A stretch of 50,900 nucleotides of DNA from Bacteroidales bacterium (GCA_017416695.1 JAFQBL010000147.1:1-50900); one strand, 5' to 3'; positions 3,833 through 19,826 are shown, counted from the stretch's first letter. Notes: a model not told the origin generated them from the letters alone. Made by a program: numbers and translations.

Positions 3833-6800
3833 ATGGCTTCGAACGTAAAACAGCGAATAAATTTTGCTTCCATTAAAAATCCACTATCTTACCCCGATTT
3901 TTTGGAAGTACAATTAAAATCTTTCCGAGATTTTCTCCAATTAGACACCCCTCCCGAAAAACGTAAAAACGAGGGACTATATAAAGTATTTGCAGAAAAT
4001 TTCCCCATTTCAGATACCCGCAACAACTTTGTATTGGAGTTTTTAGATTATTTTATTGATCCCCCCCGATATACAATTGATGAGTGTCTCGAAAGAGGTC
4101 TAACATATAGTGTACCTTTAAAGGCTAAACTTAAACTTTATTGTACAGATCCTGAACACGAGGATTTTGAAACAAAAATACAAGACGTATATTTAGGTCC
4201 CATCCCATATATGACTGAGAAGGGAACTTTCATTATCAATGGTGCAGAGCGTGTAGTAGTATCACAATTACACCGTTCACCTGGAGTCTTCTTTGGACAA
4301 AGTTTACACACCAATGGTAAAAAATTATACTCTGCGAGAATTATACCATTCAAAGGATCTTGGATTGAGTTCGCGACAGATATAAACAATGTTATGTACG
4401 CTTACATCGATCGTAAGAAGAAGTTACCTGTAACAACACTTCTTCGTGCAATCGGATTTGAGAGCGACAAAGATATACTTGATATATTTGGCTTGGCAGA
4501 AGAGATTAAGGTTACAAAAACAAACTTAAAGAAAAGTCTTGGTCGTCGTCTTGCAGCACGTATATCACGCACAAGTTTTGAAGATTATGTAGATGAGGGA
4601 ACAGGCGAGGTAGTATCAATTGAGCGTTCAGAAATAGTAGTAGAGCGTGAGACTATCCTTGAAGAGGAGCATATCGAAAAAATACTTGAAGTAGGAGTTC
4701 CTTCAATTCTATTGCACAAGGATGATCAATTAACATCTGACTATGCAATAATCTACAACACTCTTAAAAAAGACTCAAGTAACTCAGAGCAAGAGGCAGT
4801 AACATTTATTTACCGTCTATTGCGTAGTGCCGATCCTGTTGATGATGCAAGTGCAAGAGAGGTAATCAACAACCTATTCTTCTCTGACAAGCGTTACGAT
4901 TTAGGAGACGTAGGACGTTACAGAATAAACAAAAAGTTAAATCTTACAACATCATCTGATGTAAGAGTCTTAACAAAAGAGGATATTATAGAGATTATCA
5001 AATATCTAATTGAACTAATTAACTCACACGCTGACGTTGATGACATTGACCACTTGAGCAATCGTCGTGTACGTACAGTAGGTGAACAACTATATAACCA
5101 ATTTGGTATTGGCTTAACACGTATGGCACGAACAATACGTGATCGTATGAATGTTCGTGACAATGAGGTGTTTACACCAGTTGAGTTGATCAATGCAAAA
5201 ACAATCTCATCTGTAATCAACACCTTCTTTGGAACCAATGCGTTATCTCAATTCATGGATCAAACCAACCCATTGGCAGAGATAACACACAAACGTCGTA
5301 TGTCAGCGTTAGGACCTGGAGGACTTTCACGTGAGCGTGCAGGATTTGAGGTTCGTGACGTACACTACACACACTACGGACGTTTATGTCCAATTGAGAC
5401 ACCAGAGGGACCAAACATTGGTTTGATATCATCACTTTGTGTATATGCTAAGATAAACGATTTGGGATTCATTGAGACACCATATCGTAAAGTAGCAAAC
5501 GGAAAGGTTGACCTTTCAGAGAATGGTATCACATACCTAACAGCCGAAGTAGAGGAGAATCAAATAATTGCACAAGGAAATGCTCCATTGAATGATGATG
5601 GAACATTCATCCGTACACGTGTAAAATCACGTTTGAATGCCGACTTCCCAGTTGTAGCACCACAAGAGGTAGCATTGATGGACGTATCGCCCACACAAAT
5701 TGCTTCAATAGCAGCATCATTAATTCCATTCCTTGAGCACGACGATGCTAACCGTGCGTTGATGGGATCAAACATGATGCGTCAGGCAGTACCACTATTG
5801 CGTAGCGAAGCACCTATTGTAGGAACAGGATTGGAAGGACAACTAATACGTGACTCACGTACACAAATCACTGCTGAGGGAAGTGGAGTAATAGAGTATG
5901 TAGATGCAACAACCATCCGCATCAACTATGACCGCACAGCAGATGAAGAGTTTGTAAGTTTCGATTCTTCAGTAAAAGAGTACAACATACCAAAATTCCG
6001 CAAAACCAACCAAAGCACAACAATCGACCTTCGTCCAATATGCAAAAAAGGACAAAGAGTTGTTGAGGGCGACATCCTAACCGAAGGATACTCAACAGAG
6101 AATGGTGAGTTAGCATTAGGACGCAACTTAAAAGTAGCCTTCATGCCTTGGAAAGGATATAACTATGAGGACGCTATTGTACTTAACGAGCGTATCGTAC
6201 GTGAAGACATACTAACATCGGTACACGTAGATGAGTACACATTAGAGGTTCGCGAGACAAAACGCGGAATGGAGGAGTTAACAGCCGATATACCTAACGT
6301 AAGCGAAGATGCAACAAAAGACCTTGACGAAAGAGGAATCATTCGTATAGGAGCACACGTTGCACCAGGCGATATAATGATAGGTAAAATTACACCTAAA
6401 GGAGAGTCAGATCCTTCACCAGAGGAGAAACTATTACGTGCAATCTTTGGAGACAAAGCAGGTGACGTAAAAGATGCATCATTAAAAGCATCACCTTCAT
6501 TAAAAGGAGTAGTAATCGGAACAAACCTATACTCAAAAGCCGAGAAGAAAAAAGGCAAAAAAATAGAGAGCGAGTTACAACCTTTAGAGGAAGAATACGC
6601 AGCACGTCAAGAGGAGTTGAAATCAATTCTAATTGAGAAGTTGAGTGTATTGACAAAAGGCAAAACATCGCAAGGAGTAAAAGACTTCTTAGGAATAGAG
6701 ATAATACCAAAAGGAGCCAAGTTCTCTCAAAAAGCGTTGGCTGAGATAGATTACTCGTTAGTACAAGTAAGCAAATGGACAACAGACAATGAGAAGAACG

Positions 6801-7702: not shown

Positions 7703-10700
7703 ATGGCATATAAAAAAGATAGTAAGGTAAAAAGTAATTTCTCAAAAATTACCATCGGATTAGCATCACCCGAAGAGATAAGAATCAACTCTCGCGGTGA
7801 GGTGTTGAAACCCGAAACAATAAATTACCGCACCTACAAACCCGAGCGTGACGGATTGTTCTGTGAAAGAATATTCGGTCCCGTAAAGGATTACGAATGT
7901 TTTTGCGGAAAGTATAAAAGAATCCGCTATCGTGGTATCGTTTGTGACCACTGTGGAGTAGAGGTAACAGAGAAAAAAGTACGTCGTGAGCGTACAGGAC
8001 ATATACAATTAGTAGTACCTGTTGCACACATCTGGTATTTCCGTTCGTTGCCCAATAAAATAGGATATTTGTTAGGCTTGCCCACTAAAAAGTTGGATGC
8101 AATCATCTACTATGAAAAATATGTAGTAATTCAACCAGGATTAAAGTCTGACGTACTATCAACATACGATTTATTGACAGAAGAGGAGTATTTAAATGTA
8201 CTTGAGACTCTTCCTGCCGAAAATCAATATCTTGATGATTCTGATCCCGACAAATTCATTGCTAAGATGGGAGCAGAGGCGGTACAAGACCTATTGATGC
8301 GTTTAGACTTGGATTCACTATCATACGAGTTACGCCACCGTGCAAATACCGATGGCTCACAACAACGCAAAACAGAGGCATTAAAACGCCTACAAGTAGT
8401 AGAGTCGTTCCGTTCATCACGCGATATCAACCGTCCAGAGTGGATGATATTAAACGTAATTCCAGTTATACCACCCGAATTGCGTCCATTAGTACCATTG
8501 GATGGAGGTCGCTTTGCAACATCAGACCTTAACGACCTATATCGCCGCGTAATCATACGTAACAACCGATTGAAACGATTAATCGAGATAAAAGCACCCG
8601 ATGTAATCTTACGTAACGAAAAACGTATGTTACAAGAGGCAGTAGATTCACTACTCGATAACTCGCGTAAATCAAGTGCATTCAAAACAGAGGCAAACCG
8701 TCCATTGAAATCACTTTCAGACAGTTTGAAAGGAAAGCAAGGACGTTTCCGTCAAAACCTACTCGGAAAACGTGTCGATTACTCAGCACGTTCAGTAATT
8801 GTTGTAGGACCTGAGTTGAAGATGCACGAGTGCGGTCTTCCAAAAGATATGGCAGCAGAGTTGTACAAACCATTCGTAATACGCAAATTGATAGAGCGTG
8901 GAATAGTTAAGACAGTAAAATCTGCTAAGAAAATCATCGACCGCAGAGAGTCCGTTGTATGGGACATCTTGGAACACGTGATGAAAGGACATCCCGTGTT
9001 GTTGAACCGTGCTCCAACACTACACCGTTTGGGTATTCAAGCATTCCAGCCACGAATGATTGAAGGTAAAGCAATTCAACTTCACCCATTAGCATGTACA
9101 GCGTTCAACGCCGACTTTGACGGTGACCAAATGGCGGTACACCTACCATTAGGTAACGAAGCAATTTTGGAGGCACAAATCCTAATGTTAGGATCGCACA
9201 ATATCCTTAACCCTGCCAATGGAGCACCAATCACAGTGCCATCACAAGACATGGTATTGGGATTGTACTACATAACCAAAATGCGTAAAGGCGACAAAGG
9301 AGAGGGATTAACATTCTACGGACCCGAAGAGGCAGAGATAGCATACAACGAAGGAAAAGTAACCCTACACGCACACATAAAGGTATTGGTAAAAGACCTT
9401 GATGAAAACGGAAACATAGTAGAGGTAATGCGTGAAACATCAGTAGGACGCGTACTTGTAAACCAATATGTACCCGATGAAGTAGGATATATCAACGAAA
9501 TCTTCAAGAAAAAATCATTACGCGACATTATCAGCCGAGTAATTAAAGTATGCGGAATGGTACGAGCAGCACAATTCCTTGACGACATCAAGAACTTAGG
9601 ATACAAGATGGCGTTCAAAGGAGGATTGTCATTTAACCTATCAGACGTAATCATCCCTGAGGAGAAAGAGAAACTAATCCAGGATGGATACGAGAAGGTA
9701 GAGCAAATCGTATCAGACTACAATATGGGATTCACAACCTACAATGAGCGTTACAACCGTATCATTGACGCATGGACAAGAGTAAATGCTGAGTTATCAA
9801 AAATATTGTTGACACAATTAACAAACGACCGTCAAGGATTTAACCCAGTATTTATGATGCTTGACTCAGGAGCCCGTGGATCAAAAGAGCAAATTTGTCA
9901 GTTGTCAGGTATGCGTGGATTGATGGCGAAACCCCAAAAATCAGGAGCAGAAGGCGGACAAATTATCGAGAACCCAATTCTTGCGAACTTTAAAGAGGGA
10001 TTGTCGGTGTTGGAGTACTTTATCTCAACACACGGTGCTCGTAAAGGTTTGGCGGATACAGCGTTGAAAACAGCCGATGCAGGATACCTAACACGTCGTT
10101 TGGTTGACGTAGCACACGATGTGATAATCCATGAGGATGATTGTGGAACACTTCGCGGATTGGTATGCACCGAGTTGAAGAACAACAAAGAGACAGTAGC
10201 AACACTATATGAGCGTATATTGGGACGTGTATCGGTACACGATGTACAACACCCAATAACAGGCGAAATAATAGTAGAAGCAGGACAGGAGATAACCGAA
10301 GAGATAGCACAACGCATTGAAGAATCTCCAATAGAGCGAGTAGAGATACGTTCAGTATTAACATGCGAATCTAAAAAAGGAGTATGTGCAAAATGTTACG
10401 GACGCAACCTTGCAACAGGTAAGATGGTGCAAAAAGGCGAGGCAGTCGGAATCATTGCAGCACAATCAATCGGAGAGCCAGGTACACAGTTGACATTGCG
10501 TACATTCCACGTGGGAGGTATTGCGTCAAACATTGAGACAGTATCAAATGTAACATCACGTTACGACGGTATCCTTGAGATAGAGGAGTTGCGTACTGTA
10601 GATGCAAAAGATGAGGCAGGAAAAGATATAATGGTAGTGGTAGGACGTTTGGCAGAGATGCGTATCGTAGATCCACACACTAAGATAGTCTTAACCTCAA

Positions 10701-11959
10701 CCAACATACCTTACGGTTCAAAACTATACTTCAAAGATGGAGCAACAGTTAAGAAAGGCGATGTAATCTGTGAGTGGGATCCATTCAACGCAGTAATCAT
10801 CAGTGAGGCAACAGGTAAATTGCAGTTTGAGAACGTAATTGAGGGAGTAAACTACAAACTTGAGAGCGATGAGCAAACAGGATTTAGCGAGCGAATAATC
10901 ATAGAGTCAAAAGACCACACTCGTATCCCTTCAGCATTAATTGTGGGAGCAGACGGAAATGTAGAGCGCAGTTACTCATTACCTTTAGGAGCCCACATCA
11001 TGGTAGAAGAGGGACAAGAGATAAAAGCAGGAGACATATTGGTTAAGATACCACGTGCCGTAGGAAAAGCGGGAGATATCACTGGAGGTCTTCCACGTGT
11101 AACCGAGTTGTTTGAGGCACGTAACCCATCAAATCCAGCAGTAGTAGCAGAGATTGACGGAGAGGTAAAATTAGGCAAAATCAAACGTGGTAACCGCGAG
11201 ATCATAATCACATCAAAGACAGGAGAACAAAAGAAATATTTGGTATCACTATCAAAACAAGTACTTGTACAAGAGAACGATTATGTAAGAGCAGGAACAC
11301 CATTGTCAGATGGATCAATAACACCAGCCGACATCCTTGCAATTAAAGGTCCCACAGCAGTACAAGAGTACATTGTAAACGAGGTACAAGATGTATATCG
11401 CCTACAAGGTGTGAAGATTAACGACAAACACTTTGAGGTAATTGTACGTCAGATGATGCGTAAAGTAACAATTGTCGATCCAGGAGATACACGCTTCCTT
11501 GAACAACAAATAGTTGACAAGTTAGAGTTTATGGAGGAGAACGACCGCATCTGGGGTAAAAAGGTTGTAGTAGATGCAGGAGACTCACAAAATCTACGTC
11601 CAGGACAAATCGTAACAGCACGAAAACTTCGCGAGGAGAACTCATTGTTGATACGCCGCGACCAAAAACCAGTAGAAGTACGTGATGCAGTACCTGCAAC
11701 ATCAGAACAAAACCTACAAGGAATCACACGTGCGGCACTACAAACAAGCAGTTTCATGTCAGCAGCATCGTTCCAAGAGACAACAAAAGTATTGAACGAG
11801 GCAGCAATCAACGGAAAAGTTGACAAGTTAGAGGGTATGAAAGAGAACGTAATTTGCGGACACTTGATACCAGCGGGAACAGGACAACGTCAATTCAATA
11901 AGTTGATAGTAGGAGCGCAGTCTGATTTTGATCAATTGATTAATGAGGATGAGGAGTAA
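7703..11959 (+). CDS. rpoC: DNA-directed RNA polymerase subunit beta'
   Basis: Zn-binding [23 protein letters not shown] and catalytic [12 protein letters not shown]. Length 1418 aa. Stop TAA is at 11957-11959. Confidence 0.97.
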
Positions 11960-12033
11960 AATTAGTTGTTAGAGGCTGACAATACACCAAATAGAGTAGG
12001 AGGGCTATCCAAAGGGGTAGCCCTCCTTTTTTT
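11952..12033 (+). repeat. Left copy of a perfect 82-bp direct repeat (last rpoC codon, stop and terminator)
   Basis: Base-by-base comparison shows it is identical to 13279-13360 (AGGAGTAAAATTAGTTGTTAGAGGCTGACAATACACCAAATAGAGTAGGAGGGCTATCCAAAGGGGTAGCCCTCCTTTTTTT). Confidence 0.95.
11999..12033 (+). terminator. Intrinsic terminator after rpoC (copy 1)
   Basis: GGAGGGCTA / TAGCCCTCC stem followed by T7. Confidence 0.8.
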
Positions 12034-12059
12034 GTAATAGAGTAATCAAAATTGAATTA

Positions 12060-12082
12060 AATTTTGTTTTCTAAACAAAATT
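12060..12082. promoter_or_regulatory. Perfect 10-bp inverted repeat (AATTTTGTTT-n3-AAACAAAATT), candidate operator of the HTH/NTase cassette
   Basis: Palindrome read directly. It lies immediately upstream of a -7 box and of the HTH gene. Confidence 0.35.
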
Positions 12083-12085
12083 GTT

Positions 12086-12093
12086 TATTTTTG
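12086..12093 (+). promoter_or_regulatory. Bacteroidota -7 promoter box TATTTTTG (TAnnTTTG consensus)
   Basis: Exact match to the TAnnTTTG consensus. It ends 4 nt before the ATG at 12098, which implies a very short or absent leader. Confidence 0.35.
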
Positions 12094-12097
12094 CAAT

Positions 12098-12616
12098 ATG
12101 AATACTACTATAGAGATACTCAAAGGATTGCATCCTGGTTTATTTTTAAAGAGAGAACTTAATAAACGTAACCTAAAAAGTGGATATTTTGCCGAGTCAA
12201 TCGGAGAATATCCGCAGACGCTTAGTGCCATTATTCGAGGTCGTAGATCTATGAATACGCCACTATCGCTACGCATTGAAAGAGCGTTAAATTTGGAAGA
12301 GGGATTATTAATGACTTTACAAGTATATTACGACATATATGAAGAGAAACGCCGCTTAGAACAAATCAATCGTTTGGATATAACAAAATTCCGTCCTATA
12401 TTATTTTGGGATACACGAATTGAGAATATCGAATTCTTTCAACACAGGCGTTATGTAATTAATAGAGTATTTGAGCGAGGCACAGAGGAAGAAATTTTGG
12501 AGACCATACGTTTTTATGGAGAAGAGACAATTCTTGAAGCTATAGATATATCAACCAAATCTCCTTTTGTTGAAAATGTAAAAAGAAATCTTAAAGCATA
12601 TCTTAACTATGAATAA
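12098..12616 (+). CDS. HigA-family HTH (antidote-type) protein with an additional ~90-aa C-terminal domain of unknown function; putative antitoxin/regulator
   Basis: The N-terminal segment LHPGLFLKRELNKRNLKSGYFAESIGEYPQTLSAIIRGRRSMNTPLSLRIERALNLEEGLLMTLQVYYD follows the HigA/VapI pattern (HPG..L..E..., ..I..G.R......L.L, ..L...YD). The C-terminal part (FWDTRIENIEFFQHRRYVINRVFERGTEEEILETIRFYGEETILEA) was not recognised. Its end overlaps the next gene by 8 nt. Confidence 0.8.
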   Translation: MNTTIEILKGLHPGLFLKRELNKRNLKSGYFAESIGEYPQTLSAIIRGRRSMNTPLSLRIERALNLEEGLLMTLQVYYDIYEEKRRLEQINRLDITKFRPILFWDTRIENIEFFQHRRYVINRVFERGTEEEILETIRFYGEETILEAIDISTKSPFVENVKRNLKAYLNYE

Positions 12617-13280
12617 CATAAAATTACAATATCAGACAGTTAAGCCAATACTTCGTTCAGTACTTGAACGTTTAATGCAAATGAAAGATTTTGATCCCTT
12701 TTGCCTTGTTGGAGGTACATCTCTTTCGTTACGTTACGGCCATCGTATGTCAGATGACATAGATCTCTTTACAGATGCAGAGTATGGCTCGTTGGATTTT
12801 TGCAAATTACAGGATATTTTGAGAAAAGAGTTTGCATATTGTTATGGCGATTATGGAACAATAGTTGGATTAGGAGTTTCATATCTTGTTGGCAATACTA
12901 AAGATGATTGTGTAAAACTCGATCTTTTTTATACCGATAAATTCATACGACCAATTACTTTGCAGGACAATATACGTATTGCATCGGTTGATGATATTGT
13001 GGCAATGAAGATGGATGTACTTTCACACGGAGGGCGAAAAAAGGATTTTTGGGATTTACATCTATTGCACAATTACTACTCTATAAAACAAATGGTTTCA
13101 TTGTATGAAGAGCGATACCCGTATGGAGTAGAACGAGAAGATTGCATAAGGGGACTCATAAATTTTAAACTTGCCGAATTTGATCCCGATCCAATATGTA
13201 TGAAGGATAAGGTTTGGCAGTTGATAAAACTCGATTTCACCGAATGGGTTGAAGATTTTGAGAAAGCAACATTAACATAG
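12609..13280 (+). CDS. AbiEii/AbiGii-type nucleotidyltransferase (putative type IV TA / abortive-infection toxin)
   Basis: The NTase-fold motif LVGGTSLSLRYGHRMSDDIDLFTD (GGT...D.D) plus the downstream VKLDLFYTD are characteristic of the DUF1814/AbiEii family. The ATG overlaps the upstream stop (ATGAATAA). Confidence 0.8.
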   Translation: MNNIKLQYQTVKPILRSVLERLMQMKDFDPFCLVGGTSLSLRYGHRMSDDIDLFTDAEYGSLDFCKLQDILRKEFAYCYGDYGTIVGLGVSYLVGNTKDDCVKLDLFYTDKFIRPITLQDNIRIASVDDIVAMKMDVLSHGGRKKDFWDLHLLHNYYSIKQMVSLYEERYPYGVEREDCIRGLINFKLAEFDPDPICMKDKVWQLIKLDFTEWVEDFEKATLT

Positions 13281-13360
13281 GAGTAAAATTAGTTGTTAGA
13301 GGCTGACAATACACCAAATAGAGTAGGAGGGCTATCCAAAGGGGTAGCCCTCCTTTTTTT
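13279..13360 (+). repeat. Right copy of the perfect 82-bp direct repeat
   Basis: Identical to 11952-12033. The TAG stop of the NTase gene (13278-13280) overlaps the first 2 nt of the repeat. Confidence 0.95.
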
Positions 13361-13361
13361 T
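13326..13361 (+). terminator. Intrinsic terminator (copy 2, T8) now serving the cassette
   Basis: Same hairpin as 11999-12033, offset by 1327 nt. Confidence 0.8.
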
Positions 13362-13397
13362 ATGAAAAATAAATTTAGCAATTAATCTAATTGGTTA

Positions 13398-13412
13398 AAT
13401 AAGTCCAATTAG
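13398..13412 (+). promoter_or_regulatory. 15-nt motif AATAAGTCCAATTAG shared with the upstream region of the next T9SS cargo gene (20048-20062)
   Basis: Exact 15-mer found in both upstream regions, each 30-40 nt after a terminator. In this copy it forms the right arm of an 8-bp inverted repeat (CTAATTGG 13387-13394 / CCAATTAG 13405-13412). Confidence 0.35.
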
Positions 13413-13528
13413 TCATCCTATTTATTTTTATTCTAACAACAGATTAGGTGGCGGAGGTAAATTTGTTAAAAAACTCACTAATAGGTAAAATTTTTCAGAA
13501 AAAAACATAATATTCAAAAATAAAAAAC

Positions 13529-13655: not shown

Positions 13656-16600
13656 ATGAAGAAAAGTTACTTTTGGGGATTATTATTTGCTGTAATAGCA
13701 CTTATCCCCGGGCAAAATGTTTTTGCTCAAGTTGCTGCTGATCAATTACCAACGGGTTATTGTTCAGTTACCAAGAGAATGAATGAAAGTTGTACCGGAT
13801 CAGATTTGGACAATGTTCATTCTCATTCAATACAAGGACTTACTGCAACCTATGAGGGGTCTGAAGTATTGAGTTTGTCAGCAACTTCAACAACATTTAA
13901 CGATTTGACTTCAAGTAAACAATTTACTGTAGGTCAAGGAGGAACAATCGAAATTTCATTTACTAATGGAGCTTGGTCAAAGAACGTATGGTTCGGATTT
14001 GACTGGGACAGAGATGGAGATTTTGAAGATGTTGTTGCTGCTTATGGTGAAGAAGGTCGTGTTGGAGGAACTTCAGATCAAGGATCTGTAACAATTTATG
14101 TTCCAGATGATGCACAAGCAGGAAAATCTGTTATGCGTATCATCTCTGATGGTGTTGATTGCGCTACAAGTTGGAGCGAAGAGACTCCAATGTGTGGAAC
14201 ACACGGAACAGGTTATATTGGTTATGCAGGATCATTGCACGATGTAACAATTATTGTTGAGGAGGTAGAACTTGAAGGAGAGATTTTCACAATCTCTGTA
14301 TCTTCAAATGATGATACAATGGGTGCAGCAACAGCAGAATCAACATCTGTAAGAGATGGACGCCCTGCAACCTTGACAGCAACTGCTAATGAAGGTTACA
14401 AATTTGTAAATTGGACAGTTGAAGGAACAGAGGTTTCAACTGAAAATCCATACAAACCAATAATCACAGCCGCAACAAACTTTGTTGCAAACTTTGTTGC
14501 ACTACCAACATATGCAGTAAGCGTAGCAGCGAACAATGATGCTTTTGGTAGCGTAGAGGCTTCGGCAGAATCAGTATTTGAAGGTTCTACAGTAACACTT
14601 ACAGCAACTGCTAAAGAGGGTTATCGCTTTGAAAACTGGACAGTAGCAGGAAGTGTTGTTTCAACTGAGAATCCATATACAGCAACAATAACTGCCGAGA
14701 CAGCATTTGTTGCAAACTTCAAAGAAGTTATAACAATAGCAACTGGTAAAGAGTATCGTATTAAAGATATATCTGCAAATCAATATTTAACAGCATTTAA
14801 TCATGATGCCCACACAAGTGGTGCCTATGGTGGTGTTGGAACAAGTGCATATGATGAAGATAATGAAGATCAAATCTTTATATTTGAGGAGAGCGGAGAA
14901 AACTACAAGTTAAAAACAAAGAGTGGTTACTATATCTATGCACAAGCATGGAATGTTGACGCATTGTCTTCTCAATCATCGGAATTCAAGTTCCCCGAAA
15001 ACGGAACATCTGGCTATTACATGCAAGTATATAATACCAATAATGGTAATGCTTGGTACTATGTTAAGAATGAGTATGTAGCGGCTGCAAGTGGTTATTA
15101 CCTATTTGGCGATGCTGCTATTGGCGCTGCCGCTACTTGGGTATTGGAACCAGTGGCACCAGCAGTTGTAACATTTACTGTAACAGCAGTTCCTTCTGAC
15201 GGAGCAATGGGAGCAGTATCTCCTGAAACTTCAACAGTTGAAGAGGGACAAACAGTAACTCTTACAGCTACTGCAAACGAGGGTTATGAGTTTGTAAATT
15301 GGACTTCAGGAACAAACACATTAAGTGAGGAGAATCCTTTCACAATAACTCCAGCATCAGATACAACAATTGTTGCTAACTTCCAATTAATACCTACAAC
15401 TGTAACATATCCTATCACAGTATCATCATCAGATGAGACAATGGGTACAGTTGAAGCATCAGCAACAGAGATTGTAGAGGGCGAGACAGTAGTTCTTACA
15501 GCTACACCAGTAGCAGGATATGTATTCAAAAACTGGACAGTTGGAACAGAAGAGGTTTCAACAGAGAATCCATATACAGCAACAATAACTGCCGAGACAG
15601 CATTTGTTGCAAACTTTGAAAAAGCACCTGCCGATGATGCAACATTGGCACTTATTGAAGAGGCTAAAGCACTTATCGTAAAAGACGGAGTAGGTTATCC
15701 TTCTGCAGCAGCAAAAGCAACATTCAAAGAGGCTCTTGACGTAGCAGAGAATAATCCATATGCTGGTGCAGCAACAGCACTACAAGCAGCAATGGATGCT
15801 TACATTGCTACTGACGATATAGTATTGCCAACAGCAGATAAAGCATATGCATTTATCTCTCGTGGAAAAACTGCAAACTTCTACATGTATAACAATGTAG
15901 GAACTTTGGCATTGGCATCATACACCGAAGGAATGGAGTTGCCAGCAACAGCAATGTTCGTTTGTCAATACGATGAAGAAGCATCAAAATATGTATTCAA
16001 AACATCTGACGGAGCATATTATTTAGCATATCCTTCACCAGGTAAAGCATGGTTGAATGATAAGAGTGAAACAGGTCTTGAAACAGAGTTAAGAAGAGTA
16101 TCTCAATTTAGTATCGAGACACTTACAATAGACGGAACAAATGTAGTTGCAACACCTGAAGACTTGTTCGGATATGTTCACCTATGGGGTTATCGTGGAA
16201 ACGAAACTAAAAACGGAGTAACATCTGACTTTAATGGTCCTATGATAGTTACCTCAGCAGGAGCATTTGATGGAGCAGGAGGTGATTTCTATAACTCAAC
16301 AACATCTTCAGCATTCTCAGTAATAGAGGTTGAGTTGCCAACTCCAACATTTGCAGTATCTGCAGTATCAGCAGACGCTACAATGGGATCAGCAACAGTT
16401 AGTGCAGCAGAGGTAGAAGAGGGAGCAGAGGCAACCTTTACAGCAACTGCAAACGCTGGATACAAATTCACTTGCTGGACAGTAGGAACTGACACTATCT
16501 CAACAGAGAACCCATACACTGCTACAATTTCTGCAGCAACAGAGTTAACTGCAAACTTTGAGGCACTTGTTCCCTCAATTGTATTGACAGCAACACCTGA

Positions 16601-19600
16601 TGTAGAGCGTCAATTCTTATTCACAGTAGAGAATGAAACAAAATTATATATCGATTGGGGTAATGGCGAACTTAAAGAAACAGAAGATATTTATGAGGCA
16701 TGGAAAGAAGGTGGAGTAGTTGATCCTTCATGGGTATCAGATGGAGCAACAACAATTATCGGAACTCCTGTAGGAGAAGGAATTGTTAAGATTTATGGAG
16801 ATGGAATTACATATTTTGATTGTGGCTATAGTTCAAGTTATGCATCAAAAGTAACAGCATTAGATGTAACAAAAGCAACATCACTTATCGAGATTAACAT
16901 TTCAAGTAACGAAATTGCGGCTCTTGATTTAACTAACAATACAGCGTTGTATAAAATTACTGCAGACAATAATGCAACATTGGCAATATTAGAATTGCCC
17001 GAAAGTGAGATGAATGTTATATCAGCAGTAAATTGTGCATTAACATCAATAGACGTGTCAAAATTGACCACATTGACATCGTTGAAATTAAACAACAACA
17101 ATATAGGAAATATTGATTTAAGTGCAAATACCGCTCTTGTAACATTGGAGTTGAATAACACAGGAATCACATCAATAGATTTGAGCAATAACACAGCACT
17201 AACATCATTGTATATTAACTTCAATAATATACCAACATTAGATGTAACAGCACTAACATCATTGAAATACTTCCATTGTGAAGGATCTCAAATCTCTGAT
17301 TTGAAATGTACTGCTGTAAAATCACGTGCAAGAATAGTAAACAATAACTTGACATTGGCAACAATGCCAGCTATTACAACATCAACATTTGTATATGCAC
17401 CACAAAATGCAATGGCAATTGCAACAGAGATTAACGAGGGTGAGGAGCTTGACCTATCAGCACAAAACAACATTGTTGGATTGGCAGATGAGGCTCAAGC
17501 AACAGACTATACTTGGTATTTAGCAGACGGAACAGAGTTTACTAACTACACTGAGGCAGATGGTAAATTTGTATTTGATGTAACAGAGGACACTGAGTTG
17601 TATTGTACAATGACAACTGCTGCGTTCCCAAGCTTCTCTGGAGCAAACGCATTCAAAACTACAAACATTGTTGTTAAGAATGTAGCAGTTCCTGTTACAA
17701 TCTCAGTTGCAACAAGCAATGAGTACTACGGAACAGCTGCTATTGATGGCGTTACAGGAACTTCAACAGAGGTTATGGCTGGAGATGATGTAACAGTTGT
17801 TGCAACTCCTGCAGAGGCATTTGCCGATTATATTGTATATGAGTTTGAGGCTTGGACTGCTGGAACTGATACTATCTCAACAGAGAATCCTTATACATTC
17901 ACTGCTGCAGAGGCTCTATCATTAACAGCAAACTTCGGTTGCTATATGATGGTAAATGTAACTGCATCAGAGGGTGGTTCAGCATACATTAACGATGCTG
18001 TGGCTGAGGCAACAGTTAAATTGCCATATCAATCAAAAGCAACTCTTCATGCAGTTGCAAATGAAGGATATGCATTCTCTCACTGGACATATACGACCTC
18101 AACAGGAACTGAAACTGTTTGGAATGAATCTACAGCAGATCAACAATTTACAGTAGGTCAATATACTGCATTTACTGCATATTTCGTTCCAGTTGCAACT
18201 GAGCGTAAAGTTCAAATCCAATCTAACGATATTACAATGGGTTATGTAACTATCATATCTCCTTCACTTGGTGGCACAGGAACAGGTACTGGCACAGGAA
18301 CAGGTACTGGCACAGGCACAGGAACAGGTACAGATTCTGCTACTTCTGGTGGTGGACAAAAACCATGGATAATTACAAGTGAGGATGTAACTGCTCAAGC
18401 ATTTACAAATGGAAGTACATATGAGTTTGTAAACTGGACAATCAATGGTGAAGAGGTAGGAACTGAAACTACTTATACTTATACTGGTAGCGAGGAAGCT
18501 GTAATTCAAGCAAACTTCCGAGTTAAAGTTGTTACTTATAATGTAAACATTGCAACTGCTACAGGTCAAGAAACTTTTGGTACAGTTGAGATAGTTGGTT
18601 ACGAAGGAACTTCGGCTAATATTGAGGCTGGTACTGAAATAACTATTGTTGCAACTCCTGCTGAGGGTTATCAATTCATGAGTTGGTCAGACGCTTTAGG
18701 TTCTGATGTTTCAACAGAGGCTTCTTATACATTTACTGTAAATAGTTCTGTATATCTTGAGGCTTGGTTTGAGAGTGCACCTGTTGCAACTACTTACGCA
18801 GTATCTGTTCAAGCAGCACCAACTTCAGATTATGGTACAGTTGCTATTGAAGGTGCTGAAGGAACAACTGCTCAAATTGAGGAGAACGCTTCGGTAACAG
18901 TTGTTGCAACTCCTGCTGAGGGTTACGCTCTTGAGGGATGGTACGATATTACAGGCGCTACTCTATTAAGCACTGACCTTTCATACACATTCACTGTAAC
19001 TGCTGAAACAACAGTTGTTGCATGGTTCATGGAGGCTACACCTGAGGAGCCTGAGTATTGTATAGATTTCGGTACTTCAACTCGTTCAGGAGGTCGTTAT
19101 ATGGAATCACTTACATTCTCTGATGGTGCACATGAAACTACAGTTAATGTAAATCAACAAAATGGTTACGGTGCCCCAATTTACTTCGACAAAACAGATG
19201 TAAATGTTTCGCTTGAGGCAAGTAAAACTATCACTTCTAATGTAAACTGGCATGGAGAGTGGATGCACTCATACTTGTTTGTGGATTGGAACAACGATGG
19301 AGAGTTTACTCGTAACTTAGGTACTAACTTTGTTCCTGAAGAGGATAGCGAGTTGATAGCATTCTCATTCTGGAGTGGTGTTGACGGAAACTCTCAAGAG
19401 AATGAAGGATACAACAGTGCTGGTCAATATATAACAGGAAATGATCGTTCAGTATGGGCATTGCCAGAATTTACTATTCCTGCATCTATCGCTGAGGGTA
19501 CTTATCGTGCTCGTTTGAAAATAGACTGGAATACAGCAGATCCTTGCTCAGTAATGTCAGCAGGAGATGCTCCTTGCGTAGTTGACTTTATGATAACAGT

Positions 19601-19826
19601 AACATATCCTGATGGAATTGCAGATGCTGACGCTGATGCAGTTCAAGTATATGCTACAAATGGTGTTATCTACATCAATGGTTACGAAGGCAATGTTAAA
19701 GTTGTAAATGCTGCTGGTCAAGTTGTTAAAGACGTTATGGTTAACGGTGCTGAGCAACTTAATGTAAATGCAGGTCTTTACATGGTAGTAACAGGCGATA
19801 AAGTAACCAAAGTTGTGGTTAAGTAA
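13656..19826 (+). CDS. Giant (2056 aa) T9SS-sorted cell-surface protein: signal peptide, GEVED-like domains at both ends, about 10 InlB-B-type (Listeria-Bacteroides) repeat modules, a beta-trefoil-like insert, an LRR block, a (Gly-Thr)10 linker and a Por C-terminal sorting domain
   Basis: Signal peptide MKKSYFWGLLFAVIALIPGQNVFAQ. DW[DN]xDG[DE]F motifs (FDWDRDGDFEDV and VDWNNDGEFT). Recurrent modules such as TLTATANEGYKFVNWTVEGTEVSTENPYKPIITAATNFVANF. LRRs (LDLTNNTALYKI..., IDLSANTALVTLELNNTGITSIDLSNNTALTSL). The C-terminus VQVYATNGVIYINGYEGNVKVVNAAGQVVKDVMVNGAEQLNVNAGLYMVVTGDKVTKVVVK is typical of T9SS CTDs. Confidence 0.9.
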   Translation: MKKSYFWGLLFAVIALIPGQNVFAQVAADQLPTGYCSVTKRMNESCTGSDLDNVHSHSIQGLTATYEGSEVLSLSATSTTFNDLTSSKQFTVGQGGTIEISFTNGAWSKNVWFGFDWDRDGDFEDVVAAYGEEGRVGGTSDQGSVTIYVPDDAQAGKSVMRIISDGVDCATSWSEETPMCGTHGTGYIGYAGSLHDVTIIVEEVELEGEIFTISVSSNDDTMGAATAESTSVRDGRPATLTATANEGYKFVNWTVEGTEVSTENPYKPIITAATNFVANFVALPTYAVSVAANNDAFGSVEASAESVFEGSTVTLTATAKEGYRFENWTVAGSVVSTENPYTATITAETAFVANFKEVITIATGKEYRIKDISANQYLTAFNHDAHTSGAYGGVGTSAYDEDNEDQIFIFEESGENYKLKTKSGYYIYAQAWNVDALSSQSSEFKFPENGTSGYYMQVYNTNNGNAWYYVKNEYVAAASGYYLFGDAAIGAAATWVLEPVAPAVVTFTVTAVPSDGAMGAVSPETSTVEEGQTVTLTATANEGYEFVNWTSGTNTLSEENPFTITPASDTTIVANFQLIPTTVTYPITVSSSDETMGTVEASATEIVEGETVVLTATPVAGYVFKNWTVGTEEVSTENPYTATITAETAFVANFEKAPADDATLALIEEAKALIVKDGVGYPSAAAKATFKEALDVAENNPYAGAATALQAAMDAYIATDDIVLPTADKAYAFISRGKTANFYMYNNVGTLALASYTEGMELPATAMFVCQYDEEASKYVFKTSDGAYYLAYPSPGKAWLNDKSETGLETELRRVSQFSIETLTIDGTNVVATPEDLFGYVHLWGYRGNETKNGVTSDFNGPMIVTSAGAFDGAGGDFYNSTTSSAFSVIEVELPTPTFAVSAVSADATMGSATVSAAEVEEGAEATFTATANAGYKFTCWTVGTDTISTENPYTATISAATELTANFEALVPSIVLTATPDVERQFLFTVENETKLYIDWGNGELKETEDIYEAWKEGGVVDPSWVSDGATTIIGTPVGEGIVKIYGDGITYFDCGYSSSYASKVTALDVTKATSLIEINISSNEIAALDLTNNTALYKITADNNATLAILELPESEMNVISAVNCALTSIDVSKLTTLTSLKLNNNNIGNIDLSANTALVTLELNNTGITSIDLSNNTALTSLYINFNNIPTLDVTALTSLKYFHCEGSQISDLKCTAVKSRARIVNNNLTLATMPAITTSTFVYAPQNAMAIATEINEGEELDLSAQNNIVGLADEAQATDYTWYLADGTEFTNYTEADGKFVFDVTEDTELYCTMTTAAFPSFSGANAFKTTNIVVKNVAVPVTISVATSNEYYGTAAIDGVTGTSTEVMAGDDVTVVATPAEAFADYIVYEFEAWTAGTDTISTENPYTFTAAEALSLTANFGCYMMVNVTASEGGSAYINDAVAEATVKLPYQSKATLHAVANEGYAFSHWTYTTSTGTETVWNESTADQQFTVGQYTAFTAYFVPVATERKVQIQSNDITMGYVTIISPSLGGTGTGTGTGTGTGTGTGTGTDSATSGGGQKPWIITSEDVTAQAFTNGSTYEFVNWTINGEEVGTETTYTYTGSEEAVIQANFRVKVVTYNVNIATATGQETFGTVEIVGYEGTSANIEAGTEITIVATPAEGYQFMSWSDALGSDVSTEASYTFTVNSSVYLEAWFESAPVATTYAVSVQAAPTSDYGTVAIEGAEGTTAQIEENASVTVVATPAEGYALEGWYDITGATLLSTDLSYTFTVTAETTVVAWFMEATPEEPEYCIDFGTSTRSGGRYMESLTFSDGAHETTVNVNQQNGYGAPIYFDKTDVNVSLEASKTITSNVNWHGEWMHSYLFVDWNNDGEFTRNLGTNFVPEEDSELIAFSFWSGVDGNSQENEGYNSAGQYITGNDRSVWALPEFTIPASIAEGTYRARLKIDWNTADPCSVMSAGDAPCVVDFMITVTYPDGIADADADAVQVYATNGVIYINGYEGNVKVVNAAGQVVKDVMVNGAEQLNVNAGLYMVVTGDKVTKVVVK
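16842..17310 (+). repeat. Leucine-rich-repeat block within the giant protein (approximate bounds)
   Basis: About 22-24-aa periodic L..L.L..N.I..IDL units in the translation. Confidence 0.7.
18273..18332 (+). repeat. In-frame (GGN-ACN)10 repeat encoding (Gly-Thr)10, including an 18-nt unit GGCACAGGAACAGGTACT repeated twice
   Basis: Codons read directly: ggc aca gga aca ggt act ggc aca gga aca ggt act ggc aca ggc aca gga aca ggt aca, followed by GAT TCT GCT (D-S-A). Confidence 0.95.

Follow-up and report, generated by a model that had tools for sequence, protein, structure and literature searches.

The window analysed here, a 50,900-nucleotide stretch from a Bacteroidales bacterium (GCA_017416695.1, JAFQBL010000147.1:1-50900), carries directly behind the RNA polymerase gene rpoC a compact cassette of two overlapping genes that is enclosed by perfect 82-bp direct repeats and is not accompanied by a recombinase. 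The repeats consist of the 3′ end of rpoC and its terminator, and the cassette is present in some strains of the species and absent from others. The features of the locus, in window coordinates, are:

7703–11959, + strand: rpoC, 1,418 aa (open reading frame (ORF) list; Pfam RNA_pol_Rpb1_1-5 on the identical product in other contigs)
11952–12033, + strand: left 82-bp repeat, made of the GAG-GAG-TAA tail of rpoC (stop region 11952–11959), a 38-nt spacer, the terminator hairpin and T7 (base comparison; a single copy follows rpoC in the empty contig L026)
11998–12033, + strand: intrinsic terminator of rpoC, with a 13-bp stem, a 4-nt loop and a T-run (terminator scan and fold)
12034–13278, + strand: unique insert, the cassette proper, 1,245 bp (missing from the empty contigs L026, L195, L197 and L201)
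12060–12082, no strand: perfect 10+3+10 palindrome, AATTTTGTTT-TCT-AAACAAAATT, between the −33 and −7 boxes; presumed operator (sequence)
12063–12093, + strand: predicted Bacteroidetes-type promoter, with −33 box TTTG (12063–12066), 19-nt spacer and −7 box TATTTTTG (12086–12093) (sequence)
12098–12616, + strand: antitoxin gene, 172 aa, with an N-terminal HigA-like Xre helix-turn-helix (HTH) domain and a C-terminal DUF6922 (Pfam, NCBIfam and PDB matches)
12609–13280, + strand: toxin gene, 223 aa, AbiEii/DUF1814-type nucleotidyltransferase (Pfam, PADLOC)
13279–13360, + strand: right 82-bp repeat, forming the 3′ untranslated region and terminator of the cassette (base comparison)
13325–13361, + strand: second copy of the terminator hairpin, followed by T8 (terminator scan)
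13361–13463, no strand: intergenic stretch linked to the haplotypes with the 82-mer, called E1 and F below (about 65–70% alignable to haplotype E2; 192 of 295 nt match in the 'down300' comparison)
13656–19826, + strand: downstream gene for a 2,056-aa, repeat-rich surface-type protein (Pfam Flg_new_2 ×8, GEVED, PKD_3, LRR_4), which forms the right flank in every haplotype

A toxin–antitoxin-like cassette between two copies of the rpoC terminator

The two 82-mers match at 82 of 82 positions and start 1,327 bp apart, whereas 100 shuffles of the window gave no match of this kind, even with up to three mismatches tolerated. Their identity ends sharply on both sides: upstream, the G of rpoC (...GATG/AGGAG) stands opposite a T (...AACAT/AGGAG), and downstream, T7 followed by G in the left copy faces T8 followed by A in the right copy. 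The repeat opens with AG-GAG-TAA, which in the left copy represents the last two codons of rpoC and its stop, and in the right copy its first two bases are shared with the TAG stop of the toxin gene (13278–13280), which straddles the junction between insert and repeat. Each copy contains a hairpin, AGGAGGGCTATCC-AAAG-GGGTAGCCCTCCT, followed by a T-run; its 13 pairs include 8 G-C pairs and it folds with an energy of −34.6 kcal/mol (z = −5.2), being joined in the fold of the entire 82-mer by just a short 5′ stem. Between the copies lie the two genes, the palindrome and the −33/−7 boxes, and nothing else. The insert has a G+C content of 33.9%, as against 38.5% for the window.

A reading of this DNA from the sequence alone had already described the perfect repeats, their 1,327-bp period, the hairpin and T-run, the overlap with the toxin stop and the content of the insert, all of which were confirmed. 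That reading also placed the insertion between rpoC and its terminator, which is indistinguishable from an insertion after the terminator: rpoC keeps its stop and a terminator either way.

The hairpin has no further copy in the 50.9-kb window at up to three mismatches, and its identification as a dispersed repeat of the repetitive extragenic palindromic (REP) type was rejected on this count; an exact scan of the JGI metagenomes for it returned zero matches. Rfam matches to the repeat or the cassette are at chance level only, and a known RNA family was likewise rejected.

The first gene product matches Pfam DUF6922 (E = 2.5e-20) and HTH_3 (1.4e-4) as well as the NCBIfam model antidote_HigA (1.7e-10, beneath the model cut-off), and its residues 8–87 match HigA chains in the PDB (E = 5e-7). 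The second is assigned to AbiEii by Pfam (PF08843, E = 1.4e-19, score 71.4 against a cut-off of 22.5) and PADLOC (4e-11), and its motif GGTSLSLRYGHRMSDDIDLF is unchanged in 14 of 14 homologues; no relatives of it were found in the PDB by sequence, and DUF6922 goes unmentioned in the literature searched. The toxin start overlaps the antitoxin stop by 8 nt. Bacteroides promoters follow the consensus TTTG/TAnnTTTG; in the cassette the ATG lies 4 nt 3′ of the −7 box, so that its mRNA would have little or no leader. The palindrome motif TTTGTTTTCTAAACAAnATTGTTTATTTTTGC is kept in relatives at unrelated loci, and by analogy with the autoregulation of AbiEi (PMC7319586) the palindrome at 12060–12082 is presumed to be the operator of the antitoxin.

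From this organisation, with the antitoxin gene first, overlapping frames and a palindrome in the promoter, we infer that the cassette is a toxin–antitoxin (TA) operon of the AbiE/MenT kind. Two cistrons and an autorepressing antitoxin characterise the AbiE systems, which are type IV TA/abortive-infection modules (PMC3985639, PMC7319586). The cassette shares with them an AbiEii/DUF1814 toxin that has the Pol-beta-type motif G-[GS]...D-x-D, and the bicistronic layout with antitoxin first, overlapping frames and a promoter inverted repeat. However, AbiEi combines a winged HTH with a COG5340 domain, whereas the antitoxin of the cassette joins a HigA-like Xre HTH to DUF6922 and matches no AbiEi model; because its antitoxin is not AbiEi, the pair is not a canonical AbiE pair, although it probably works like one. 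The toxins of the MenAT systems of M. tuberculosis (PMC7450476, PMC10435456, PMC11375011) belong to the same DUF1814 superfamily, but the toxin of the cassette is only distantly related to them. MenT toxins modify tRNA acceptor stems (PMC7450476), and such modification, blocking translation, is the best-supported mechanism for toxins of this type, which are paired with diverse antitoxins (PMC7450476, PMC10435456, PMC11375011).

The absence of a recombinase, which the sequence-only reading had also remarked on, extends beyond the repeats. The two TA genes are the only genes between them, and 20 ORFs scanned at 20–50 kb of the window contain no recombinase or integrase, all of them encoding housekeeping or surface proteins (among them a sulfatase, oxidoreductase subunits, LeuRS, SecDF, RelA/SpoT, PFK, LytB and Cmk). 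Terminal inverted repeats, including those of an insertion sequence (IS), were not found on the cassette, as had been stated. Integron attC sites, transposon ends and a linked integrase were searched for, not found and rejected. A plasmid or phage origin was rejected as well, Bacteroidetes plasmids and one phage contig carrying only distant relatives of at most 46% identity; six IMG/VR contigs carry relatives of the cassette at 47–70% identity.

Three haplotypes behind rpoC and their exchange between strains

Contigs covering the locus were found by exact look-up of the toxin, antitoxin and RpoC proteins in public assemblies (L001 is the window's own contig), and further strains were sampled through the identical L7/L12 protein with 10-kb flanks (21 contigs). 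Promoter type, the relatives of the cassette and the ruminant-gut MAG series to which L004 belongs point to Bacteroidales as the source. The order rpoC, 82-mer, cassette, 82-mer, large downstream gene recurs in more than 25 contigs that come from differing samples and assemblers, some of them longer than 100 kb. They include MEGAHIT k141 contigs, whose k-mers exceed the repeat in length, so that each copy must have been crossed by reads anchored in unique sequence to its left and right. Some contigs break at the repeats: L007, L016, L017 and L018 start in the left copy, L010 and L025 end in the right copy, and L027 ends at the end of an 82-mer.

Three haplotypes occur in the species: a filled one (F), a precise empty one seen once (E1) and a commoner empty one with another terminator (E2). 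E1 is represented by L026, in which an identical RpoC gene is followed by a single 82-mer, with one single-nucleotide polymorphism (SNP), and then by DNA exactly like that found in the window after the right repeat. The 21 contigs sampled through L7/L12 comprise 8 filled and 13 empty E2 alleles (L195 and nine similar contigs, L197 and one similar contig, and L201); three of these 13 (L195, L197 and L201) were inspected, and the other ten were counted as similar places. In E2 the rpoC stop is followed by AACACCTCTAACCCAATATTAGAATAGCGGAAGAGCAATCTTCCGCTATTTTTTT, a different hairpin terminator; about 120 bp after it align at roughly 65–70% with the flank of E1 and F, and near-identity returns at about 13464, some 190 bp before the downstream gene. 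The E2 terminator, AGCGGAAGAGCAATCTTCCGCT plus T7, lies at L195:18695-18850 and at the same position in L197 and L201, a stretch that corresponds to window positions 11960–13463.

The intergenic region 3′ of rpoC is thus hypervariable and mosaic among strains, with near-identical sequence on either side. Since the commonest empty allele has a different terminator, the flank of 82-mer type is itself only one haplotype of this variable region, and it was on a flank of the E1 type that the duplication arose. The empty sites that the sequence-only reading had proposed to look for therefore exist, in two forms, and an ancient fixed arrangement is rejected. The same reading had suggested that other cargo might occupy the junction; none was found. 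The one candidate, L019, is identical to the window up to about 13060 (rpoC, left repeat, antitoxin gene and two thirds of the toxin gene) and then falls to about 70% identity with a foreign flank (L019:3430-3711), but it switches inside the stretch coding for the invariant GGRKKDFWDLH and is most likely a chimeric assembly. Nor did any of the roughly 40 contigs of this species that cover the site contain a larger element, all of them being F, E1 or E2.

Judged by rpoB/rpoC, there are two strain backgrounds, one about 99% and the other about 97% identical to the window, and F and E2 occur in both. For the filled contig L196, which belongs to the 97% clade, the difference from the window amounts to 2.7% in rpoB/rpoC but to only 11 of 1,245 positions (0.9%) in the cassette. 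Its comparison with the empty clade-mate L195 gives 0–5 mismatches in each 500 bp of the initial 6.5 kb of rpoB-rpoC, after which the count rises to 20 and 16 within the final 1.6 kb of rpoC; L201, an E2 contig of the 99% clade, shows the mirror image of this pattern. These jumps are recombination tracts with a breakpoint inside rpoC. The presence of F in two backgrounds, together with the breakpoints in rpoC, means that homologous recombination in the flanks moves F: strains swap filled and empty alleles by way of the conserved neighbouring sequence, and no function encoded by the element is needed.

In this respect the cassette resembles accessory islets and defence hot spots flanked by core genes, which likewise exist as presence/absence alleles between core genes and are transferred with breakpoints in the flanking core gene; relatives of the cassette, moreover, adjoin defence-type genes (OLD/AAA_15, Fic). 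It is not usual, however, for such islets to lie between exact copies of the end and terminator of the upstream gene.

The divergence of the cassette dates the insertion approximately. Synonymous divergence (dS) between strains is 0.008–0.033 in the cassette genes and 0.024–0.045 in rpoC, so that the insertion is about as old as the strain diversity or somewhat younger, and not fresh. SNPs private to one repeat copy are present in L004, L010, L013, L022/L198 and L196, with a maximum of 3 in 82 positions (L196); the copies are not evolving in concert, and at the divergence observed it is no surprise that all 82 bp should match in the window strain. The suggestion, made from the identity of the copies, of a very recent event or ongoing gene conversion is accordingly rejected, the repeats diverging independently and the cassette having diverged along with the strains.

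The cassette also decays. In L013, L017, L018 and L199 the toxin gene carries the nonsense mutation Q161* (CAA to TAA, window position 13089; L013:6992) beside an intact antitoxin gene, which is the usual decay path of a TA pair and fits a toxic gene without proving it. In L022 and L198 (L022:10578-10584, L198:20013-20019; window 13277–13286) a change of CATAGG to CAATGG has removed the toxin TAG, and the ORF ends two codons later, at the in-frame duplicated TAA of rpoC, to give 225 aa.

Upstream of rpoB lie tRNA-Trp, NusG and the ribosomal proteins L11, L1, L10 and L7/L12 (gene order; Pfam on identical contigs). Beyond the window, some 13 kb upstream of where rpoC ends, filled as well as empty haplotypes carry a gene for a 303-aa Xer-like tyrosine recombinase (L195:4426-5337); it sits between rpsU and a ribosome hibernation factor gene, upstream of tuf-secE-nusG-rplKAJL-rpoBC. 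On the right side, the 2,056-aa protein contains eight InlB-B-repeat/Flg_new_2 domains, GEVED, PKD and LRR domains and a run of Gly-Thr dipeptides. Its length varies from 1,970 to 2,160 aa (as called) across strains, with internal families of 139-nt repeats, and it is far more diverged among strains than rpoC (dN, nonsynonymous divergence, up to 0.011).

Relatives of the cassette at other loci

Homologues of the toxin number 4,230 at E ≤ 1e-10 and are scattered over Bacteroidales chromosomes, the nearest outside the species being 77% identical. For comparison, 166 related loci were gathered from genomes, metagenomes and viral contigs. The part of the window that they resemble at the DNA level begins near 12060, at the operator, and ends near 13250, in the last toxin codons; the C-terminal tails of the toxins are variable. 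The neighbourhoods are highly diverse: 126 upstream neighbour ORFs represent 116 Pfam families and 134 downstream ones 124, including enolase, GMP synthase, MnmE, topoisomerase, aminotransferases and some defence-type genes, and an integrase adjoins the cassette in 3 of 126 relatives. Cassettes 88–98% identical in DNA occur in differing flanks, with homology breaking 14–39 nt upstream of the operator and between −28 and +11 nt of the toxin stop; the left ends differ by subfamily, lying 14, 16, 19, 29 or 39 nt from the operator. These tight ends imply that the relocating unit is approximately the minimal functional operon.

Direct repeats directly outside the cassette recur in this family. With a local score of at least 58 they flank 17 of 122 loci with adequate flanks (about 14%), as against a maximum score of 31 in 600 mismatched left/right pairs and 3 of 258 shifted placements at the same loci; a tight-window analysis gave 10 of 128 loci at a score of at least 30 (null 0.03%). 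Weak similarity between flanks is also in excess (33 of 128 at a score of at least 14, as against 4.6% in the null), which may partly reflect shared composition within a genome, the null pairs having been drawn from different genomes. Apart from the attC-like cases described below, the repeats are 42–85 bp long and specific to their locus, as in the following examples:

L139: last five codons of mnmE, its stop and 28 nt
L043, L048 and L118: 48–68 bp with a terminator
L051: 55 bp
L053: 3′ end of a tRNA gene and a terminator
L117: 42 bp
L145: first 16 codons of a downstream response-regulator gene

No sequence just inside the repeats is shared by the six repeat-bearing loci compared (the window, L043, L051, L139, L145 and L190).

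In the subfamily L029–L034, cassettes 86–97% identical follow enolase (L032) or a thioesterase-like gene (L029, L031), or lie about 600 bp further on (L030) or elsewhere (L034), and L030 keeps an uninterrupted version of the site that is filled in L031. In L029–L032 the hairpins on either side of the cassette are hybrid members of a single family of similar terminators: L032 has an identical core of 25 bp, the left parts are about 80% alike and the right hairpin halves differ, the half on the cassette side being the one that accompanies the cassette at other loci. L034 has the cassette-borne terminator on the right and an unrelated native terminator on the left, with no repeat. One crossover joining a cassette-borne terminator to a similar chromosomal one, as in insertion-duplication of the Campbell type, would be expected to leave the hybrid pattern of L029–L032.

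Two distant relatives from environmental metagenomes, about 53% identical, differ in kind. L155 (946-1088, 2505-2646) and L173 (645-746, 2206-2304) are bracketed by imperfect palindromes of 100–143 bp with the form TAAC...GTTA that fold end to end and look like integron attC sites, which suggests that the TA family also travels as integron cassettes.

Further arrangements were observed among the relatives. In L053, from a metagenome-assembled genome (MAG) of Rikenellaceae, an inverted repeat of about 40 bp, GAAAAATCCTCTGAGAAGGGGATGGTGAGTTGGAGGGTGG, flanks the cassette relative (4285-4325, 5640-5680), and the whole unit lies between an intact tRNA 3′ end with terminator and a degenerate copy of both. 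In some Bacteroidaceae (L036, 1517-1696 and 3166-3345, and the same interval of L035 and L039), the interval between guaA and a thioesterase-like gene is an islet in which repeated terminator-containing elements separate small genes; a 180-bp repeat starts 13 nt before the guaA stop, and a duplicated 3′ fragment of a resolvase-like HTH gene stands directly after the cassette. L052 (5650-6000) and L055 (5640-6000), from Alistipes/Rikenellaceae MAGs, share the left flank (a metallophosphoesterase gene and terminator) and the cassette but continue with differing genes within about 25 nt of the toxin stop, one of them with a start resembling that of an OLD/AAA_15-type ATPase; the impression is of stacked defence-type cassettes whose module boundaries are sharp. 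The relative in L106 (4250-4392, 5911-6053) is flanked by a 143-bp repeat with a terminator hairpin inside it and AAAGTTGCAACC at either end; the same unit is also found downstream of the cassette in L083 (about 1030-1100) and may be a dispersed repeat family.

Origin of the 82-bp duplication

The anatomy of the cassette and its 82-bp target duplication, the three haplotypes, the spread by flank recombination and the lack of a recombinase are secure. As to origin, we lean on balance, if only slightly, towards an account in which an accessory TA cassette was placed behind rpoC with duplication of the 82-bp site by host recombination or repair, spreads by homologous recombination and can be lost precisely. 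The duplication would have arisen once, on the rpoC flank of the 82-mer (E1) type, by duplicative insertion, and either a Campbell-type insertion-duplication or a repair or template-switch event would give the observed topology. The left repeat would leave rpoC complete and terminated and insulate the cassette from the strong rpoBC transcript; the cassette would be transcribed from its own promoter, probably under repression by its own antitoxin; and the right repeat would act as its terminator, shielding the downstream gene. To judge from the AbiE/MenT family, the TA pair may serve as an addiction and/or abortive-infection module. Since the insertion the cassette would have been without mobility machinery, the filled allele spreading by host homologous recombination via rpoC and the downstream flank. 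Precise loss would be possible by recombination between the two 82-mers, as the sequence-only reading had proposed, and the empty L026 has the structure expected of the product.

This account has a model in Campbell insertion-duplication and in the translocatable units of IS26, where cargo likewise sits reversibly between two copies of a host segment, and to which the hairpins of L029–L032 are similar; the rpoC locus differs from these in having no vector, IS or transposase, and no circular intermediate was observed.

Several points weigh against it. The step that makes the 82-bp duplication was not observed; conservative recombination cannot create it unless the incoming DNA carried the 82-mer, and no mechanism is known for pre-loading incoming DNA with an exact copy. 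No tandem arrays, circular junctions, circle-like permutations or excision intermediates were found in 192 loci (an outward-facing, circular junction would read ...AACAT / 82-mer / GTAATAGAG...). Because the single 82-mer of L026 has a G-to-T change of its own at repeat position 42, and L026 is not a simple crossover product of its nearest filled relative, L022, E1 may be the ancestral pre-insertion state and not an excision product. Both junctions of the insert, moreover, fall at ends typical of the family (29 nt upstream of the operator, and the toxin stop codon), which is more readily accounted for by insertion of a defined unit in a single step, with a long target duplication, than by illegitimate capture in two steps, and the clustering of repeat lengths at 42–85 bp in the relatives could reflect a dedicated mechanism. 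Finally, the TA activities are predicted from sequence, for a pair whose antitoxin is not a canonical AbiEi.

A non-autonomous mobile element is an explanation that we consider unlikely. Here an enzyme acting in trans from another place in the genome or from a co-resident element, transposase-like, Cas1-like or structure-specific for terminator hairpins, would insert the unit of about 1.2 kb with target duplications of about 40–85 bp, and older insertions would have lost their repeats. The recurrence of repeats at independent loci, each built from the local gene end or terminator (rpoC, L139, L053, L145 and others), argues for it, as do their strong enrichment over shifted controls, the excess of weak flank similarity, as far as this exceeds same-genome composition, the narrow range of repeat lengths, and the similar positions at which near-identical cassettes end across contexts, which are exactly those of the window junctions. 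Against it stand the lack of a conserved terminal sequence or inverted repeat inside the repeats at the six loci compared, the variation of the left end among subfamilies, the lack of a recombinase consistently nearby and the 86% of loci without clear repeats; in this species, moreover, the allele demonstrably moves by flank homology. No enzyme is known to make variable 40–85-bp duplications. Transposons, miniature inverted-repeat transposable elements (MITEs) and palindrome-associated transposable elements (PATEs) differ from the cassette in that it has no conserved termini and a duplication of variable length (42–85 bp), and dif/pdif sites in that its hairpin has 13-bp arms but a 4-nt spacer. 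Integron cassettes, including the TA cassettes of chromosomal integrons, resemble it as small units with their own promoter and no recombinase that stack with other small cassettes, and L155 and L173 have attC-like sites; the 82-mer, however, is the native rpoC terminator, single in the empty allele, and shows on inspection no R″/R′ cores or long palindrome, and neither an IntI integrase nor an attI site was found near the cassette.

The broader proposition that these cassettes constitute an undescribed minimal mobile unit of about 1.2 kb, which has no recombinase or conserved termini and inserts by gene ends and terminators with target duplications of about 40–85 bp, is correspondingly tentative. 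If it were true, host gene and cassette would both receive a terminator, the agent would be an enzyme in trans or hairpin-triggered replication or repair, and rpoC would be a young, well-preserved example.

It is also conceivable, but in our estimation improbable, that the duplication is a one-off by-product of replication or repair, through template switching on microhomology at the hairpin or homology-facilitated illegitimate recombination landing 82 bp upstream, with repeats that play no part, no excision and E1 ancestral. Terminator hairpins are hot spots of template switching, as in quasipalindrome-associated mutagenesis. The private SNP in L026, the free divergence of the repeats and the lack of circle or tandem intermediates would all be in keeping with such an event, and duplications are tolerated beside essential gene ends where deletions are not, a selective filter that would favour gene-end and terminator repeats. 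A single accident, however, hardly explains recurrence at no fewer than 12 independent loci with similar repeat lengths, and it leaves unexplained the hybrid hairpin sites of L029–L032, which look like crossovers between cassette-borne and chromosomal terminators. Furthermore, RecA-dependent recombination usually needs less than 82 bp of identity, so that on general grounds occasional deletion is to be expected.

Integrase-mediated elements can also duplicate the 3′ end of their target gene: with phage 21 and e14 at icd the gene stays intact, but these elements measure tens of kilobases and themselves bear the duplicated segment, which is usually diverged. A remnant of this type at rpoC is very improbable. 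It would be a cis-mobilizable element (CIME), the term for elements without integration or transfer genes but with attL and attR (PMC5704250), left when a larger integrase-bearing element (an integrative and conjugative element (ICE), an integrative and mobilizable element (IME) or a prophage), integrated site-specifically at the rpoC 3′ end and supplying a substitute 3′ end and terminator, decayed to attL, TA pair and attR. The cassette indeed has flanking direct repeats that include a housekeeping gene 3′ end, a hallmark of the att sites of tyrosine integrases, and no integration or transfer genes inside; TA genes resist loss, and in L053 an intact tRNA 3′ end stands on one side of a cassette relative and a degenerate copy of it on the other. 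Yet no larger element, partner ICE or IME, or site-specific integrase was found among the roughly 40 contigs of this species. The repeats exactly duplicate native DNA and do not form an attP/attB identity block, the unit is 1.2 kb long with relatives that have repeats of their own, and repeats so specific to each locus could not all be recognised by one integrase, which in any case seldom neighbours the cassette (3 of 126 relatives). The insert is trimmed tightly as well, with 26–29 nt from left repeat to promoter and 0 nt from toxin stop to right repeat, and equally tight ends are found at numerous unrelated loci.

That the assembly itself produced the duplication, for example through a mis-joined repeat or a collapsed extrachromosomal circle, is practically out of the question, and this reading was rejected: several contigs do break in or at the edge of the repeats, but more than 25 independent contigs, including those built with k-mers longer than 82 bp, cross both copies into unique flanks, and the copies carry private SNPs that a collapsed repeat could not yield.

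In summary, the locus is a natural example of an addictive or defensive two-gene module placed directly behind a highly conserved, highly transcribed operon, with a duplicated terminator that would insulate both. Filled, precise empty and alternative empty alleles all segregate in one species, which makes gain, loss and spread measurable, and the locus shows that host homologous recombination alone is enough to carry a mobile-looking cassette through a population. With more than 4,000 homologues, the combination of AbiEii toxin and HigA-like/DUF6922 antitoxin is abundant, and it is uncharacterised. The recurrent, locus-specific flanking duplications of 42–85 bp, formed from gene ends and terminators without a recombinase, are not explained by known insertion mechanisms; they are the part of these findings that could prove new, and they offer a lead on how small defence and TA cassettes colonise the neighbourhoods of core genes in Bacteroidales.

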